A stretch of 64,000 bases of DNA from an uncultured Bacteroidia bacterium (GTDB lineage Bacteria > Bacteroidota > Bacteroidia > Bacteroidales > ML635J-15). Below, piece by piece: positions 44,159 through 57,735 of this stretch (the first letter of the stretch is position 1; every line of letters begins with the position of its first letter). Position numbers and translations under genes: made by a program. Under the pieces are notes generated by a model. That model was not told the origin of the DNA. It ran no database searches and saw only the letters and a list, made by a program, of their open reading frames with translations. The stretch lies in the NCBI GenBank assembly GCA_902800045.1, contig CADCCZ010000001.1, forward strand, positions 436,640 through 500,639. Direction: 5' to 3'.

Positions 44159-45433
44159 TTAGTCCGTTTTTAGTCCGTCCGTTCCGAACGTGTTGAACTT
44201 GTCCATCTCCTTTTTTTTGAGTTCGTCAACAATGTCGATGTAAGGTTTCATGGAGTTGTAATCTGAATGACCAGTCCATCGCATTATGACTTCTGCTGGT
44301 ATTCCCAAGTATAGAGAATTTACGACAAAAGTTTTCCTTCCGCAGTGCGTTGTGATAAGTTGCCATTTCTCATACACTTTTTCTTCGCGTTTGCTTCCGC
44401 TGTACTGGACGATTTTAATCTTGTCGTTCATTTCAGCCATACGGCAGATAGTCTTTAGGTGCTCGTTTTCCTTTTGGTTGCAGAACACAGGCAGAGCCTT
44501 GTTATTTGGCAGAGGAACATCTTCGTACTTGTCGAGTATTGCCTTTGAATATTTGTTTAGTTCCACTTCAAGGCTGTCGGTTGTTTTCTGTGTCGTAAAT
44601 TTTATCTTGCCGTCAACGATGTCGGATTTCTGCAGCTTGCGAACATCGGAGTATCGAAGTCCAGAGAAACAGCAGAAGCAGAATACATCGCGAGCCTGCG
44701 AATACTTAACTCTGTCGAAATCCATATTGTAAAGCCTTTGCAGTTCCTCCCAAGTAAGGTAGATTATAGGTGCATCCGCTTTCTTTAGGCGAGGTTTGAA
44801 GTTTTCGTGTGCCTTGCCGTTATATAGTCCACTCTTTGAACACCAGCGCAGGAACCAGAGGAATAACTTTATGTTCTTTGCAATCGTTGTGTTTTGATTT
44901 CCTTTGTCAATAAGGTATTTCTGAAAACCAAGCATAGTGTCTTCCGTGATAGAGTTTACCTGTATGTTTGGGCAGAAATCATTTAGCAGGTTGCGAAGCC
45001 GTTTGAACTCCGCTATTGTTCCGCTCTGCCATTCGTTCTGCAGGCTCATCTTCTTGACAAAGGTGTCGTATGTGTCAAGTATGGTACGGATGTCTGATAC
45101 TTCTATCTTTCCGAATGTTGCATTAAAGGACTGCTTGAACTCGTCAACGGTCGGTACTAGACTTTTGTTGTAGAACTGCTGGAATATTTCTTCGGCAGTC
45201 TGCTCGAAGAGTGTCATTTTCCTGTTGATCTCGCTTGCAGGTATTTTGTCTGGTCCATGAGTAGTGTTTATTCGTGCGCGGTTTTGGTCTTTGAGATACT
45301 TGTTGCTTTCTATGGCATATCCGAGTGCAAATGCAGCAATGCACTTGCTGCCATTCCATTTTACTCGCATACGGAGACGGAATGATGTCGCATTGATTTT
45401 GTCTTGTACCCAGTTAATCCTGTAAAGTATCAT
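44159..45433 (-). CDS. int: Tyrosine recombinase / phage integrase
   Basis: Catalytic motifs SGLRYSD, QKT, HCGRKTF, TGHS and KPY; N-terminal arm-binding region. Likely start MILYRIN at 45433. Direct repeat TTTTAGTCCGT x2 at the stop resembles arm sites. Confidence 0.92.
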   Translation of the reverse strand: MILYRINWVQDKINATSFRLRMRVKWNGSKCIAAFALGYAIESNKYLKDQNRARINTTHGPDKIPASEINRKMTLFEQTAEEIFQQFYNKSLVPTVDEFKQSFNATFGKIEVSDIRTILDTYDTFVKKMSLQNEWQSGTIAEFKRLRNLLNDFCPNIQVNSITEDTMLGFQKYLIDKGNQNTTIAKNIKLFLWFLRWCSKSGLYNGKAHENFKPRLKKADAPIIYLTWEELQRLYNMDFDRVKYSQARDVFCFCCFSGLRYSDVRKLQKSDIVDGKIKFTTQKTTDSLEVELNKYSKAILDKYEDVPLPNNKALPVFCNQKENEHLKTICRMAEMNDKIKIVQYSGSKREEKVYEKWQLITTHCGRKTFVVNSLYLGIPAEVIMRWTGHSDYNSMKPYIDIVDELKKKEMDKFNTFGTDGLKTD

Positions 45434-45680
45434 AAAAGTTTCCCTTTCCGAGCAGAATCCACTTTGGAGATATGTTATAGTCGTTGCACAGATATGCCAC
45501 ATACTCGCATTTGAGTATTGTATTTTGGGGTTTGTTCTTTACTGTGATAAGATTCCACCTGTTGATGCCGTGCTTCTTTGTGAAGGTCTGCAATCCTCTT
45601 ATTTTGCCGTCCCTCGCAAGGATGTCAATGGCATCGAAGAACCGCCTTGTAATATCAATTCCTGACTGGCTGATTATCAT
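45414..45680 (-). CDS. Small HTH-like phage protein
   Basis: 88 aa ending YNISPKWILLGKG, typical of XRE/CI-type domains; overlaps the integrase start. Confidence 0.65.
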   Translation of the reverse strand: MIISQSGIDITRRFFDAIDILARDGKIRGLQTFTKKHGINRWNLITVKNKPQNTILKCEYVAYLCNDYNISPKWILLGKGNFYDTLQD

Positions 45681-45872: not shown

Positions 45873-46307
45873 CTAATCAAGTTTAGTTACCAGTTTTTCA
45901 AGAAGCATTCCGATTTGCTTTCTCATTTCCTTGTTTTCCTCAATAAGTTTATCCTGCTGCTTTATGAGCTGGTCGATAAGCAGGTTCTTCTGGTCGAGTT
46001 CCTTATACATCGAATATTCAATCTCGGAATTTTGAGAGCTTTCTGCTGGAACCATCTTGTCCTGCTCCTTTGTGTCGGGTTCGACCTTTACGAATTTCTT
46101 TAGCATAGGCTGATGGCCGTACAACAGGAAGTCAAGGCTTATCTCTGGCAGTTTCTTCAACAGAATCTCCATATCGAAGGTATCACGCATAAACCACTTG
46201 TTCAAAGTTTGCGGAGAAATGTCCAGGAACTTCGCCAACTGGCTTTGTTTCCTGAATCCCTTGTAGGTCATAATCTCGCTTAAAATCCTCTTTTTCAATC
46301 CGTTCAT
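45873..46307 (-). CDS. CI-like repressor (HTH plus coiled coil, no S24 peptidase domain)
   Basis: QSQLAKFLDISPQTLNKW HTH and ISLDFLLYG motif; divergent from the Cro-like gene. Confidence 0.78.
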   Translation of the reverse strand: MNGLKKRILSEIMTYKGFRKQSQLAKFLDISPQTLNKWFMRDTFDMEILLKKLPEISLDFLLYGHQPMLKKFVKVEPDTKEQDKMVPAESSQNSEIEYSMYKELDQKNLLIDQLIKQQDKLIEENKEMRKQIGMLLEKLVTKLD

Positions 46308-46316
46308 ATTTCTTTG

Positions 46317-46413
46317 TAAAAAAATGTCTATAAAATTTTGTCAATAATAAAAAAATGTATAGTTTTGCACCATTATTAATAATAATATTATTGTTAATAA
46401 CAATGCAAATGTA
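46317..46413. promoter_or_regulatory. Lysis/lysogeny switch: two operators and face-to-face promoters
   Basis: TAAAAAAATGTCTA (46317) and TAAAAAAATGTATA (46348); + strand TAGTTTTG at 46360; - strand TACATTTG at 46406-46413. Confidence 0.65.
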
Positions 46414-52915: not shown

Positions 52916-53773
52916 ATGAAACGGGAGAACTACATATTTTACCGAAGTTTTTATGAGGCATTAAAAGACCTTCCTGACGATATAAGGCTTCAATGTTATG
53001 ATGCTATTTCTGAGTACTCGTTGAATGGGAATCTTATTGAGTTGAAAGGAATTGCAAAGACTATAATGGTGCTGATAATGCCACAGTTGGAGGCAAACAA
53101 CAGGAAGTATCTCAACGGAATGAAAGGTGCTGAACATGGAAAGAAAGGAGGCAGACCTAGGAAACCCCAAAACGAGAAAAACAAAACCCCAGAAAAACCC
53201 CAGAAAAACCCCAAAGAAACCCCTAACAAAACCCCTAATGAAACCCCAGAAAAACCCCAAGAAAACCCCAAAGAAACCCCTAATGTAAATGATAATGTAA
53301 ATGATAATGTAAATGATAATGTAAATGATAATGTAAATGATAATGTAAATGATAATGTAAATAACTCAATAGATAGTGGCGAAAAAGTTTTTTCGCCCAC
53401 GCCCATAAATAACGAACAAAATCCAGAAGGAATTTTGAACGGAGAAAATTCCAAACCAAAACTCACACCAGAAGAGCGCAAAGAAGAAAAAGAAAAAAGT
53501 TGCGCAAAAAAAGAAAAAGAGTTCCAAGAAATGTTGCGCCCATTCCTTGACCAGTACGGCAGGGATATGCTGAACGAATTTTACAAGTACTGGACAGAGT
53601 GGAACAAGTCAAGGACAAAGATGCGCTGGGAACTCCAAGCAACTTGGGACACGGCTCGTAGACTTGCAAGATGGGCAAATAACAACAAGTTCGGTGAATA
53701 TGGTGGATCTGCAAACCAGTCGCACCAGCTTTACAGGAATGAAGGTAACAATTATAACGAAACTGAATTTTAA
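52916..53773 (+). CDS. Phage replication initiator (DUF6291-like N-terminus)
   Basis: FYRSFYEA...YDAI.EY...GKKGGRP N-terminus; EFYKYWTE...MRWE...WD..RRLARW C-terminus; lies upstream of a DnaC-like ATPase. Confidence 0.78.
   Translation: MKRENYIFYRSFYEALKDLPDDIRLQCYDAISEYSLNGNLIELKGIAKTIMVLIMPQLEANNRKYLNGMKGAEHGKKGGRPRKPQNEKNKTPEKPQKNPKETPNKTPNETPEKPQENPKETPNVNDNVNDNVNDNVNDNVNDNVNDNVNNSIDSGEKVFSPTPINNEQNPEGILNGENSKPKLTPEERKEEKEKSCAKKEKEFQEMLRPFLDQYGRDMLNEFYKYWTEWNKSRTKMRWELQATWDTARRLARWANNNKFGEYGGSANQSHQLYRNEGNNYNETEF
53162..53362 (+). repeat. Putative phage origin: ten AAACCCC iterons plus 12-bp AT-rich tandem repeat
   Basis: CCCC runs at 53165, 53187, 53198, 53209, 53220, 53232, 53244, 53255, 53266 and 53277; then TAATGTAAATGA x6 plus a partial unit (53281-53362). 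Confidence 0.75.
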
Positions 53774-53777
53774 CGAT

Positions 53778-54452
53778 ATGATAGAAAATTTGAATGAAAT
53801 TATCGGTGACATCAGGTCGCGGTACGAACTAAAAAGGATTTCTTCCTATTTGCAGCCTGACAAGTACGATACGGCTAACAGCCTATTTGCAAGTATGGCT
53901 TCTGCGATATGCGGAAAAGACTACGACTGCAGAAACACAGCAAGTATAATCAACAAGTTGGTTCATTGGACATACAACACAAGCGTTGACGATATAGACT
54001 GCACAAAAGGTTTCCTTATCAGAGGCGAGACTGGTCGAGGCAAAACATTGCTAATGTACGCGATGAAAGAATTTCTGCAGTATGATTCGCATTGGTACAT
54101 TGTTGGAGGCAAGAGGTACAGACTTGAAATGTCTATTGCTTCTGCAAGGAACATTGCATTTGAGTACGCACAGCAGAGCGAGGAGAATGTTATAGCGAGA
54201 TATTCAAGAATCCCATTGCTTTGCATAGACGATTTGGGAAGCGAGCCTATGTTGTCTAGCAATTATGGTAACAAGTGTTCAGTCGTCAGTGAAATACTTG
54301 CCAATCGTGCAGAAACCAAGTTGCTGACATTTGCAACCACCAATGTTGCAAGGTTGAGCGAATGTTACGATGACAGGATAATCAGCAGGATGCACTCATT
54401 GTTCAACAGCGTGAATCTGTCGCACGAAACAGACTATAGGAAATTGAAATAA
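53778..54452 (+). CDS. DnaC/IstB-like ATPase (helicase loader)
   Basis: GETGRGKT, LCIDDLGSE, TTN and YDDRIISR motifs; start uncertain (ORF open from 53664). Confidence 0.8.
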   Translation: MIENLNEIIGDIRSRYELKRISSYLQPDKYDTANSLFASMASAICGKDYDCRNTASIINKLVHWTYNTSVDDIDCTKGFLIRGETGRGKTLLMYAMKEFLQYDSHWYIVGGKRYRLEMSIASARNIAFEYAQQSEENVIARYSRIPLLCIDDLGSEPMLSSNYGNKCSVVSEILANRAETKLLTFATTNVARLSECYDDRIISRMHSLFNSVNLSHETDYRKLK

Positions 54453-54874
54453 TGAAAGCGACACTTTACATAAACAAGCGAGAGTATTTGATTACTACGA
54501 CAAAGGAAGGCTACCCGGCATTGTCGAGGTATTCGGACGGAGGACCAACGGAAGACGACATCAAGGCGACTGCATACCGTCTTTCGTGCGCTTTTCCAAA
54601 CGAAGTAGAAGATACAATACCCAACGCTATAAAGATGGCTGTAAACTGCGGATTCTCTGGAAAAAGGCTTCGCGCTGCGGCTGAGTGCCTTATTGACACC
54701 TGTCAGACATTCGACATCAAGAAGTTCCTTTGCTTCGACAGGGTTGTGCATCTTTACATCAAGCCTGAGGTGTTGAATTTTTGCAAAGTGAATGAAACCA
54801 AGTTCAAGGCTTCCGACTTCGGAGTGTGCAACATCGACGGTATCAAGTTCTTTTACGAAAAGTCTATGGTTTAA
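54452..54874 (+). CDS. Hypothetical phage protein
   Basis: 140-aa ORF with TAATG coupling to the upstream stop. Confidence 0.65.
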   Translation: MKATLYINKREYLITTTKEGYPALSRYSDGGPTEDDIKATAYRLSCAFPNEVEDTIPNAIKMAVNCGFSGKRLRAAAECLIDTCQTFDIKKFLCFDRVVHLYIKPEVLNFCKVNETKFKASDFGVCNIDGIKFFYEKSMV

Positions 54875-54893
54875 CGAATAATACTTACTGGTT

Positions 54894-55085
54894 ATGAAGA
54901 TATTGATTATAATTCTGGCTTCCATTTACCTTTTGGCGGGACTGCTGTTCGCTCAGTTCCTGTTGTATCTCGATACGCTTGAAACAAGTTGGAAGCCGAC
55001 GTATCGTGGTGTCCTGCGCTTTATATGGCGTATGGTAATGTGGTTGCCGATAGTTATAAAATCATTGATTGACAGTAGGGATTGA
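54894..55085 (+). CDS. Small membrane protein
   Basis: 63 aa with hydrophobic segments. Confidence 0.55.
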   Translation: MKILIIILASIYLLAGLLFAQFLLYLDTLETSWKPTYRGVLRFIWRMVMWLPIVIKSLIDSRD

Positions 55086-55173
55086 AATGAGCAAGTGTAT
55101 TATTAACAGCAAGTTGTAAATAAAAAATATAAAAATATGGTACAAAAAATTTTGTCAATCAAAACAATTTCAT

Positions 55174-55237
55174 TAGTTTTGCATTGTCTAAAAATTGTAA
55201 GCGGTACGATGACCGCTGGCGAAAGTCGGCTTTTTTT
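55174..55237 (+). promoter_or_regulatory. Antirepressor promoter, target site 1 and alternative antiterminator/terminator hairpins
   Basis: TAGTTTTG (55174); TTGTCTAAAAATTGTAAGC (55184-55202); AGCGGT/ACCGCT hairpin overlapping GCTGGC-GAAA-GTCGGC-T7. Confidence 0.65.
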
Positions 55238-55259
55238 GTACCACAATGGAAAAATATCT

Positions 55260-55339
55260 GCACGGAAAGAGTGTGCGTTAGCAGTGATGCCCGCAAAGTC
55301 CAGCTTACAAGACTTAGACAACACTCACCGTGCTTTTTT
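55260..55339 (+). ncRNA. Putative C4/P4-CI-like antisense RNA
   Basis: Closed by GCACGG/CCGTGC and GAGTGT/ACACTC stems plus T6; carries AGCTTACAA and TTAGACAA, complementary to the flanking direct repeats. Confidence 0.65.
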
Positions 55340-55364
55340 ATTAACCGTCTAAAAATTGTAAGCT

Positions 55365-56198
55365 ATGGACGAAAAAATTAAAATTTTTGAAAATGCCCAG
55401 TTCGGGCTAATCAGAACCGCAGGAGATGCGGACAATCCAATGTTTTGTTTAAATGACATCTGCAAAGTATTAGATTTGCAGGTCAATAAAGTAAAAGAGA
55501 GACTGAAACAAAATGGATGGAATTTAATTCCACTCATCGACAAGTTGGGCAGGGAACAAGTTGCAACTTTCATCAACGAGCAGAATCTCTACAAGGTTAT
55601 AATGAGGAGCGACAAGCCACAGGCAGAGGCATTCCAAGACTGGGTATGTGGAGAAGTTCTTCCGTCGATAAGGAAGAATGGCGGCTACATATCGGCAACA
55701 GCCGAAGAGACTCCAGAGGAGATAATGGCGAAGGCGTTGCAGATAGCTCAGGCAACAATCGAACGAAAAGAAAAACGAATTGCCGACCTGCAACAGCAGA
55801 AGATGATACTCGAGGGACAGACCGAGCAACAGCAGAAGCAGATAGGCGAGCTGGCTCCCAAGGCAGAGTACACCGATACCGTACTGATGAGCACCACTAC
55901 CTACACGATGACGGAAGTTGCCAAGGAGTTCGGATATTCGGCAGTTACATTCTCACGCAAGTTGCGCGAGTGCGGAATCCTGTTCCAGCAGTCCGGACGC
56001 TGGATGCTCACGGCAAAGTATCAGGGAATGGGATTGATGAGCACGCGCACACACCAGTTCTATCACAACGACGGCACAATTGGCACCAACACCATAAGCG
56101 TATGGACAGAAAAAGGTCGCAAGTTCCTGCACGACTTCCGCAACGGAAAGTACAACAGAAAGAGAAGTTCAACAGATGGTTCAACAGATAAAAACTAA
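55365..56198 (+). CDS. Phage antirepressor (Bro-N plus ANT/KilAC domain)
   Basis: FGLIRT...PMFCLNDICKVL, FINEQNLY..IMRSDKP.A..FQDWV..EVLPSIRK.GGY, PKAEY.D and WTEKGRKF motifs. Confidence 0.9.
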   Translation: MDEKIKIFENAQFGLIRTAGDADNPMFCLNDICKVLDLQVNKVKERLKQNGWNLIPLIDKLGREQVATFINEQNLYKVIMRSDKPQAEAFQDWVCGEVLPSIRKNGGYISATAEETPEEIMAKALQIAQATIERKEKRIADLQQQKMILEGQTEQQQKQIGELAPKAEYTDTVLMSTTTYTMTEVAKEFGYSAVTFSRKLRECGILFQQSGRWMLTAKYQGMGLMSTRTHQFYHNDGTIGTNTISVWTEKGRKFLHDFRNGKYNRKRSSTDGSTDKN

Positions 56199-56203
56199 AA
56201 GCA

Positions 56204-56470
56204 ATGGAAACGAACATAATAGCAAAGAAGAGAATAACAGTGGAATTACCAGTATGTAGCACAAGAATAGTTTCTAGTAGAACCACAAGGCGCAAGCGCG
56301 ACGATCTTACACCAGAGCAGTACAGGTTGCAGGACGAGTTCCTTGACTTTCTTCGTCATCTTCAATCCTACCGCAAGGCTCACGGTTGTGATTCGCAAGA
56401 ATGTAGTTTCCTTAACACCGACAAGAGCCGGGAAGCAGTACTCCATTTCCTTGGCGCGATAAAGGTGTAG
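56204..56470 (+). CDS. Hypothetical protein downstream of the antirepressor
   Basis: 88-aa ORF followed by a terminator. Confidence 0.6.
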   Translation: METNIIAKKRITVELPVCSTRIVSSRTTRRKRDDLTPEQYRLQDEFLDFLRHLQSYRKAHGCDSQECSFLNTDKSREAVLHFLGAIKV

Positions 56471-56478
56471 AGGTTCAA

Positions 56479-56523
56479 AGGCTGGCGGTAACAGTAGCCT
56501 ATACCGTCAGCCAATTTTTTTTT
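56479..56523 (+). terminator. Intrinsic terminator
   Basis: GGCTGGCGGTA...TACCGTCAGCC hairpin followed by T9. Confidence 0.8.
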
Positions 56524-56602
56524 GAAAAAGTAGTAAAAATTTGTTTATAAAATTTTGCTATATCAAATATTTACACTACTTTTACAATGAATTTAAAGAA
56601 GT

Positions 56603-56839
56603 ATGGAATTAAGTAGAGAAATAGGACGGGCAATAGGAAGTGTGTTCCACTACGACCGCTACATAGTAAGGGTTGAGAGGGCTCACAGCATAACAAGTCC
56701 CTGCAGCGGTTGCGACTTTATGTTAAAAGGAAAGGACTGCCGGGCAAGGACTGATGTAGGCTACTGCAAGTCGCTACTGAGGAGTGACGGAGAAAATGTA
56801 ATCTTCAAGAAAATCAACGACTATGGAGAAGTGTATTGA
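56603..56839 (+). CDS. Cys-rich small phage protein
   Basis: CSGCDF...C...C..R.DGENVIFK motif. Confidence 0.65.
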   Translation: MELSREIGRAIGSVFHYDRYIVRVERAHSITSPCSGCDFMLKGKDCRARTDVGYCKSLLRSDGENVIFKKINDYGEVY

Positions 56840-57095
56840 CTGCAAGAAAGTTAAAAGATGTCCGTATTCTGGCGGCCACAACCAGCCGGCCTGTACAGAC
56901 TTCGTAAGGAAGGATAGGGCGGTATCGGAAGGGAAGATGGTTCGCTACATTGCAATGTTCAACGGGCAGAAGTACGAACTGAAAGTGCAGACTTCGTGTG
57001 ACGGATGTTGTTTCGAAGGAAAATGCACAGAAGCACAACAGGCGGTATGTACAGAATACGATGGTCGTGTTTTCAAAAAAATGGATGTAAAATGA
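56823..57095 (+). CDS. Cys-rich small phage protein
   Basis: CIDC..C..C and CDGCCF..C..C...VFK motifs. Confidence 0.6.
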   Translation: MEKCIDCKKVKRCPYSGGHNQPACTDFVRKDRAVSEGKMVRYIAMFNGQKYELKVQTSCDGCCFEGKCTEAQQAVCTEYDGRVFKKMDVK

Positions 57096-57484
57096 CGGAT
57101 ATAGAAAGAGACTTAAACCGTATGAGGCAGAGGTTGAACAACTTTCTGTCGCAGAAGCAAAAGGAAGATCCAGCCTACGAAGCAATGAGAGAGAATGCTC
57201 TTGCAAATGCTGGCAAGTGTTATGCAAAGGGATTCGTACTCATTACGCTTGCTATCGGGTACTTCGAGAATGCCCTTGAATTGGCAGAAAGCACAGGCTA
57301 TACCAACCTAGCAATCAACAAGGCAAATCTGCTAATGGAAGATTCGTTCGATGTGTTCTGGAAAACTCTGTGTACACAGTTGCACATTACCAAGGAGCAA
57401 ATGAATGCACTTTCCAAAGACTGCGACAACTACCGCATTCCATTGGATAATATGCTTGACGGCAGAAAGGAGAAACAAGGATGA
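57092..57484 (+). CDS. Hypothetical phage protein
   Basis: Likely start ATG 57092 (ATGA overlap with the upstream stop). Confidence 0.6.
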   Translation: MTDIERDLNRMRQRLNNFLSQKQKEDPAYEAMRENALANAGKCYAKGFVLITLAIGYFENALELAESTGYTNLAINKANLLMEDSFDVFWKTLCTQLHITKEQMNALSKDCDNYRIPLDNMLDGRKEKQG

Positions 57485-57735
57485 GCAAGATAGGACAGAT
57501 AATGCAGCATTTCAGCACTCACGGCAGTATTACTTGCTGGGAAGCGATAGACAAGTACGGAATAAGGTCTCTTTCGTCGATAGTCCACACATTAAGGACC
57601 AGAGGAGTGCAGATAAGGTCTGAATGGACTGAACTCCCAGATGGTGACAACGGACGATGCACCAAGCAAGTGAAGTATGTTTACAAGAATGTAGATGACA
57701 GGCAGTTGAGCCTGTTCAAGGAATTTGGTTATTAA
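57481..57735 (+). CDS. HTH_39-like winged-helix protein
   Basis: GSIT.WEAIDKYGIRSLSSIVHTLR.RGVQI motif. Confidence 0.72.
   Translation: MSKIGQIMQHFSTHGSITCWEAIDKYGIRSLSSIVHTLRTRGVQIRSEWTELPDGDNGRCTKQVKYVYKNVDDRQLSLFKEFGY

Follow-up and report, generated by a model that had tools for sequence, protein, structure and literature searches.

A diverged c4-2-type RNA in a putative target-antisense-target leader upstream of a Bacteroidota prophage antirepressor-family gene

The window, which is the whole 64-kb stretch of DNA analyzed here, carries genes for an integrase, a CI-like repressor, RecT, and a DnaC-like loader, and portal and terminase genes are found past its end (8 of the 10 long ORFs of that locus, L210, were scanned). 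Judging by gene content, the ORF at the center of this study (55365 to 56198) is situated in a prophage. Its product matches the Bro-N and ANT/KilAC families (Table 1), in agreement with the original prediction of an antirepressor gene at this position; antirepressor activity itself is putative and is taken from the names of these families. A host gene flanking the prophage encodes a Por secretion tail, which is a hallmark of the Bacteroidota and, taken with the type of promoter described below, indicates this phylum. A tandem NDNV-type repeat is present at approximately positions 53313 to 53370 of the window, within a DUF6291 replication-initiator-like ORF (52916 to 53773).

Table 1. Positions of the leader elements and of the prophage genes named in the text
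Feature	Position	Strand	Basis or remarks
Integrase gene	44159-45502		Prophage gene
CI-like repressor gene	45873-46307		Prophage gene
Bacteroidota-type promoter motif	55151-55181	+	TTTG -33 box, 55151-55154; TAnnTTTG -7 box, 55174-55181; sequence match to consensus
Target 1	55184-55207	+	Exact repeat 55186-55202 plus flanks that lengthen the pairing; duplex with antisense segment, -20.6 kcal/mol
Antiterminator hairpin (predicted)	55200-55217	+	5' arm within target 1, 3' arm overlapping the terminator
Intrinsic-terminator-like hairpin with T7	55215-55237	+	Hairpin 55215-55230, then T7; sequence and folding
c4-2-type structured RNA with T6 tail	55260-55339	+	RNA 55260-55333, tail 55334-55339; two closing stems, GNRA-type hairpin, hairpin bearing the antisense loop
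Antisense segment	55298-55321	+	Boxes 55302-55310 and 55314-55321; 3-nt spacer opposite an internal loop in the duplex
Target 2	55347-55364	+	The 18 nt directly 5' of the start codon; duplex, -19.2 kcal/mol
Antirepressor-family gene, Bro-N plus ANT/KilAC, 277 aa	55365-56198	+	PF02498, E 3e-17; PF03374, E 5e-28; phrog_130, E 1e-65

The leader of this gene begins with a Bacteroidota-type promoter motif, read against the consensus excerpted from PMC7366714, in which 19 nt separate the TTTG and TAnnTTTG boxes. Transcription would be expected to start near 55184 to 55187. Parts of this motif recur in 24 curated leaders, which represent one leader per sequence type (near-duplicates and weak matches were removed) and were chosen partly on complementarity. 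TTTG lies directly 5' of target 1 in all 24 of these leaders, the full TAnnTTTG is found in 21 (read by eye), and target 1 begins 2 to 3 nt past the TTTG in every one. A sigma-70 promoter scan returned 3 sites where 3.0 were expected, and the sigma-70 model is ill-suited to the Bacteroidota. An identical 14-nt word occurs at window positions 46332 to 46345 and 55146 to 55159, where it spans the -33 box of the promoter between cI and cro in the first case and that of the antirepressor leader in the second. The 3.2-Mb genome has no other exact copy and has 14 copies with one mismatch; the word is a candidate for a repressor operator shared by both promoters, or else for a trace of promoter duplication. 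Two perfect inverted repeats lie near the promoter and terminator, one of 10 nt (55065 to 55074 and 55153 to 55162) and one of 12 nt (55138 to 55149 and 55232 to 55243).

An exact 17-nt direct repeat is present at 55186 to 55202 and at 55347 to 55363, with one copy on each side of a 74-nt folded segment. Between the two copies, at 55303 to 55319, a reverse-complementary version with 3 mismatches is found. The 17-nt repeat is the longest exact direct repeat in the region 55100 to 55420, and the maximum in 2,000 dinucleotide shuffles was 14 nt. The repeat word has 3 matches in the window compared with 0.41 expected, and none of 100 shuffles gave 3. Based on these match counts and shuffled repeats, we exclude a chance origin of the target-antisense-target arrangement. 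In the predicted fold, the first of the two antisense boxes is largely unpaired, while the second is free only in its middle, with its first two bases held in a short stem. The presence of two target copies around an RNA, each complementary to its two boxes, is the arrangement by which C4/CI-type leaders are recognized. What had originally been observed in this leader is confirmed in each of its parts: the repeat occurs exactly where it was claimed to be, just 3' of the promoter (the motif ends at 55181 and target 1 begins at 55184) and again just before the ATG; the two boxes are reverse complementary to its halves; a hairpin that includes part of target 1 overlaps a terminator-like hairpin with T7; and the stem-closed RNA followed by T6 has both of the stems named.

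The segment from 55260 to 55333 folds with a free energy of -24.8 kcal/mol (z score of -2.84) into two closing stems that enclose two hairpins. It has the elements of the consensus c4-2 fold, which are two closing stems, a tetraloop hairpin, a second hairpin, and a U tail. The original prediction had proposed a search with the C4 and c4-2 models of Rfam as a check; the window copy reaches neither model, but relatives colinear with it pass the c4-2 cutoff. In a search of positions 53000 to 57500 with Rfam models, we obtained chance matches only, and the RNA segment matches no Rfam family at E ≤ 10. The window copy falls below the 41-bit gathering cutoff of c4-2 (RF02944), and a genome-wide search with this model gave nothing at its position; it also falls below the 45-bit cutoff of C4 (RF01695), which has no match at E ≤ 10 anywhere in the genome.

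We then turned to relatives, and the loci searched were the neighborhoods of relatives of the antirepressor protein, in sets picked partly for layout and partly for protein similarity. Rfam c4-2 is above its cutoff in 1 of 9 loci and, in a second set, in 7 of 20 loci, and the relatives that pass score 42 to 58 bits. The leaders of L209, L127, L058, and L132 are colinear with that of the window, and all four pass the cutoff. L209, which comes from the same genus, scores 53.3 bits and can be aligned with the window along the entire leader. A covariance model (R1) was built from 10 c4-2 matches (9 above the cutoff and 1 at 38.3 bits), with the window copy left out. R1 gives the window segment 42.2 bits (E of roughly 1.4e-8), the next match being at 13.0 bits, and finds it as the sole match in the genome. 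Within the genus, R1 has matches in 2 of 39 genomes, the window's genome counted, and the other copy is L209; Rfam c4-2 is found in 2 of 151 genomes of the order. R1 is a narrow model, with 1 match in a second batch of 50 loci and several layout-bearing leaders missed. In alignment A3, two-sided changes are seen in 22 of 24 pairs, a count that has to be read with the fact that the alignment was fitted to the model, which favors such changes. Based on the R1 score, the single match in the genome, and the colinearity with L209, which itself passes Rfam c4-2, we conclude from sequence comparison that 55260 to 55333 is a diverged c4-2 homologue of the C4 clan that lies below the formal Rfam cutoff. 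The window thus provides a case in which diverged c4-2 copies escape Rfam.

Two further candidates were rejected. An apparent second copy in the genome, at about position 614,550 of contig C1, is within apparent coding sequence and lacks the layout. Bacteroides phage BF1-TP2 was considered as a carrier, and its similarity is confined to the start-codon region, without an R1 match. When the leader was compared by blastn with 50,697 phage records, none covered 80% of it, and the best E value was 0.3. A conserved ORF over the RNA was likewise rejected, since any given frame stays open in at most 9 of the 24 curated leaders and the 47/71-aa frame over the window RNA has no Pfam match.

If the RNA acts through its boxes, these would be expected to change together with the targets. 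A blind target-antisense-target search was made in 145 distinct antirepressor upstream regions, taken from 202 loci with a match after omission of duplicates and of loci with <330 nt upstream. Twenty-one of these regions, a count that includes the window's own and several near-duplicates, beat the best of 435 shuffles. Among the 24 curated leaders, the strongest upstream pairing of an RNA is with the target of its own leader in 22, and the strongest downstream pairing in 20. In a fairer test, on 17 RNAs selected only by their model score, 14 pair best with the upstream flank of their own locus (mean pairing energies of -21.5 versus -12.5 kcal/mol). Specificity for the downstream target is weaker, with the own flank first in only 8 of these 17 (-16.6 versus -10.5 kcal/mol). 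Because related leaders are not independent, all of these counts are descriptive. The window and L209 have a common scaffold, yet they cross-pair poorly: cognate duplexes are -20.6 and -19.2 kcal/mol for the window and -20.4 and -13.1 kcal/mol for L209, while crossed duplexes are -2.9 to -5.2 kcal/mol. In all 24 curated leaders, an ATG is situated 0 to 23 nt from the start of target 2, although it is not always the gene's own start. The layout of promoter, target, RNA, target, and start therefore recurs with different box sequences and with complementarity retained, so that the covariation test by which the original prediction could have been refuted was passed, and the claim of a C4/P4-CI-like target-antisense-target leader is supported both by this covarying layout and by the homology to Rfam c4-2.

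Two differently coded c4-2-type RNAs lie within about 1 kb of each other in four loci, some in tandem and one inverted (L127:841-918 and 1103-1179; L054:439-519 and 1079-1158; L002:623-705 and 1363-1447; L058:78-159 on the minus strand and 1101-1178). Nine leaders (L007, L008, L015, L025, L026, L138, L006, L051, and L042) have the three-site layout with a different inner fold and are undetected by R1 and, where scanned, by Rfam c4-2. These are possibly further subfamilies.

The elements of the window leader follow one another in the order promoter motif, target 1, overlapping hairpins, RNA, target 2, and start codon. Our preferred reading, to which we assign a probability of about 0.7, is that the diverged c4-2 RNA acts as a self-made antisense repressor that stops transcription at site 1 and blocks translation at site 2. 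By analogy, the leader most likely keeps the antirepressor-family gene off as P1 C4 and P4 CI do, and to this extent the interpretation given in the original prediction is supported. Early after infection, before free RNA is present, folding predicts that target 1 would form the antiterminator and that polymerase would read through; in the long transcript, the antisense segment would then be held by target 1 in cis, so that the start codon stays accessible and the gene is on. We infer from P1/P7 and P4 both the processing to a stable RNA and a code-specific immunity: the RNA would be excised as a stable species of approximately 75 to 80 nt and would accumulate. Pairing of free RNA with target 1 on newly made transcripts would let the terminator form, and most transcripts are predicted to stop near 55237, which would limit both the gene and the RNA itself. 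In transcripts that read through, the RNA would act at target 2, a site that spans the initiation region, and block translation. Bacteroidota are described in the excerpted text of PMC6847099 as lacking Shine-Dalgarno signals, with initiation tuned by upstream bases and structure, and pairing at target 2 is for this reason likely to block initiation. Since the boxes differ between phages, the lock would be specific to phages of the same code.

How far the termination step applies can be judged from folding. The two hairpins of the window leader overlap by 3 nt, and the predicted occupancy of the terminator goes from 0.11 with target 1 free to 1.00 with target 1 blocked. Of the 24 curated leaders, 18 have a terminator-like hairpin between target 1 and the RNA, and 6 have no clear terminator. 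When target 1 is blocked, the terminator rises by more than 0.3 in 6 of the 18 (the window and five others) and falls in none. The change is 0.3 or less in the remaining 12, most of which are predicted to form the terminator whether or not target 1 is blocked, so that any switch in these leaders would need to be kinetic. In 14 of the 18 leaders, folds of partial transcripts have at least 2 bases of the terminator arm held by target 1, through letters that differ in each. A cruder automatic choice of hairpins, in which some hairpins were wrong, gave 5 increases and 3 decreases among 20 leaders. When the target letters were shuffled as a control, the antiterminator reached p ≤ 0.05 in 3 of the 18 leaders and was no better than shuffled in 15, including that of the window (p = 0.115, not significant). 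Because shuffled letters do as well in all but 3 leaders, we regard an RNA-controlled termination step in the window leader as plausible but not established.

These results bear on a different division of labor, in which a trans-acting antisense RNA represses only at target 2, target 1 is a decoy or times the maturation of the RNA, and a constitutive, leaky terminator acts outside the control of the RNA. The prediction of a terminator regardless of target 1 in most leaders, the weak shuffle control, and the retention of both targets without a terminator in L006, L051, and L042 are all consistent with such an arrangement. We nevertheless consider it improbable, given that blocking target 1 turns the terminator on in the window copy and in five others and that target 1 holds the terminator arm in most partial transcripts through letters that are different in each.

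Folds of the whole leader place the antisense segment on target 1 (≥0.5) in 19 of 24 leaders and on target 2 (>0.1) in 1 of 24. Since target 1 takes the antisense segment and target 2 is left free in 23 of the 24 folds, this would be the natural ON state before free RNA accumulates. The same preference for target 1 would be seen in a purely cis-acting leader switch, in which the RNA segment is never released and alternates between target 1 (start open) and target 2 (start closed), and the segment of the window does shift to target 2 in cis once target 1 is blocked (0.54). However, only 6 of 24 leaders show cis pairing to target 2 at 0.4 or more when target 1 is blocked, and a terminator that lies upstream of the RNA could be controlled by the RNA only in trans. 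A stable released RNA also fits better than cis pairing because the strongly covarying closing stems would have to open for the latter. We give a purely cis-acting switch the same low standing as repression at target 2 alone.

Two further departures from the preferred reading concern its sign and its output, and we judge them very unlikely. The sign would be reversed if the terminated target-1 RNA titrated the c4-2 RNA and so activated the gene, and a precedent is found in the accessible text of PMC4825925, in which the Gifsy-1 RNA IsrK, structurally homologous to P4 SeqA, acts in trans to activate the translation of an antirepressor gene. Titration still needs the c4-2 RNA as a repressor, however, and would extend the main model more than replace it. 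The output would differ if the protein were not an antirepressor and the switch were unrelated to immunity; some copies do precede other ORFs (e.g., L209), and antirepressor function is here a family label, but target 2 abuts or overlaps an ATG in every curated leader. That the repeats are DNA operator sites or chance occurrences and the fold incidental can largely be dismissed: direct repeats near promoters can be protein-binding sites, but the shuffles exclude chance, a conserved and covarying RNA fold presents the middle copy as two separate boxes, and all three copies change together.

Among the matches listed, contigs from four animal-gut runs are similar to the window from 55132 up to 56151 and unrelated beyond these positions, and other gut contigs have only 55198 to 55242 in common with it, their upstream letters being different. 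Matching inside 55132 to 56151 with divergence outside suggests a portable promoter-RNA-antirepressor cassette and a shared attenuator block (55198 to 55242). The same layout is also seen upstream of the antirepressor gene in Porphyromonas phage005b. A hypothetical CDS, which is probably a spurious call, is annotated over its RNA (L213:1037-1135). At L209:1501-1767, a c4-2 copy precedes an ORF of about 20 codons and then a tRNA-like sequence (a weak tRNA-Sec match of 25.5 bits) in place of an antirepressor gene.

In the literature searched, which left most subscription papers outside its reach, we found no characterized Bacteroidota example of such a switch and no function for c4-2 RNAs. In this respect the originally claimed novelty stands, but the RNA family is already in Rfam, and the novelty is lower than had been assumed. 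Given that the mechanism class has been known from enterobacterial phages since the 1990s and that the family is in Rfam, a specialist would hardly be surprised. What is added here is a testable target model for c4-2 in the Bacteroidota, in which an intrinsic terminator and a start region lacking a Shine-Dalgarno sequence accompany two targets, together with over twenty differently coded leaders of this layout. Polylysogeny is described in the excerpted text of PMC12629997 as commonest in the Bacteroidota, with induction signals that are poorly known, and RNA-coded control of antirepressors could for this reason matter for prophage induction in the gut. It could also matter as a part for Bacteroides engineering. 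A broader idea, which we put forward tentatively and at somewhat less than even odds, is that many c4-2 RNA locks, orthogonal to one another, are carried by temperate phages of the Bacteroidota on a portable promoter-attenuator-RNA-antirepressor cassette, in which the code diversifies while the fold and attenuator are kept. Such locks would form an unstudied layer of immunity that shields co-resident gut prophages from one another's antirepressors and, if real, would be ready-made orthogonal riboregulators for Bacteroides.

Among known RNAs, c4-2 was described by Weinberg et al. in 2017 as a likely distant homologue of an earlier RNA (excerpt of PMC5737381) and is also mentioned in the available part of PMC11701678; the published c4-2 material (supplement of PMC5737381) may already describe Bacteroidota members or targets. 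For C4 (RF01695) and the c4-a1b1 motif, Proteobacteria and phages are given as carriers in the portion of PMC2864571 consulted. The Rfam c4-2 RNA (RF02944, clan CL00128) has the same size and four-helix fold as the window RNA, which differs in having a 4-nt insertion between the closing stems and in being undetected by the Rfam model itself. By sequence homology, we would place the window RNA with c4-2.

P1 C4 controls an antirepressor, and the C4 RNA of P1 and P7 is released by RNase P; in P1 immI, the small gene icd lies between target 2 and the antirepressor gene. Like the window leader, P1/P7 immI C4 (a1b1/a2b2) has a two-box antisense loop and two targets, with target 2 over the translation start, and the excerpted source also reports RNA processing and specificity set by changes of a few nucleotides (PMC5320573). 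In contrast, the window has no RF01695 match and no icd-like small gene, its target 2 abuts the antirepressor ATG, and it has a Bacteroidota promoter, no Shine-Dalgarno sequence, and an intrinsic terminator in the leader. Neither a small icd/kil ORF at target 2 nor a conserved ORF over the RNA, which would be expected from P1 immI and P4, was found at the window locus.

Briani and coworkers are said to have described, in 2000, an intrinsic terminator between seqA and cI of P4. P4 CI with seqA and seqC comprises a constitutive promoter, an upstream target, the RNA, and a downstream target, and termination is controlled by the processed RNA (PMC4825925 and PMC10111431, as excerpted). The window leader has its promoter, upstream target, RNA, and downstream target in this same order. 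The two differ in that P4 regulates replication genes and has its RNA within an ORF, whereas the window has no conserved frame there and has target 2 at the start region of an antirepressor-family gene. In Gifsy-1, IsrK and STnc1160 provide a terminated 5' RNA, a complementary downstream RNA, and the antirepressor gene anrP on one transcript (PMC4825925, as excerpted). The window is similar in its predicted terminated 5' RNA, complementary downstream RNA, and antirepressor-family gene, and it differs in phylum and in having neither an IsrK model match nor a conserved coupled leader ORF. Taken by analogy, the window leader would work most like P4 CI, with the output of P1 C4, that is, an antirepressor controlled by occlusion of its start site.
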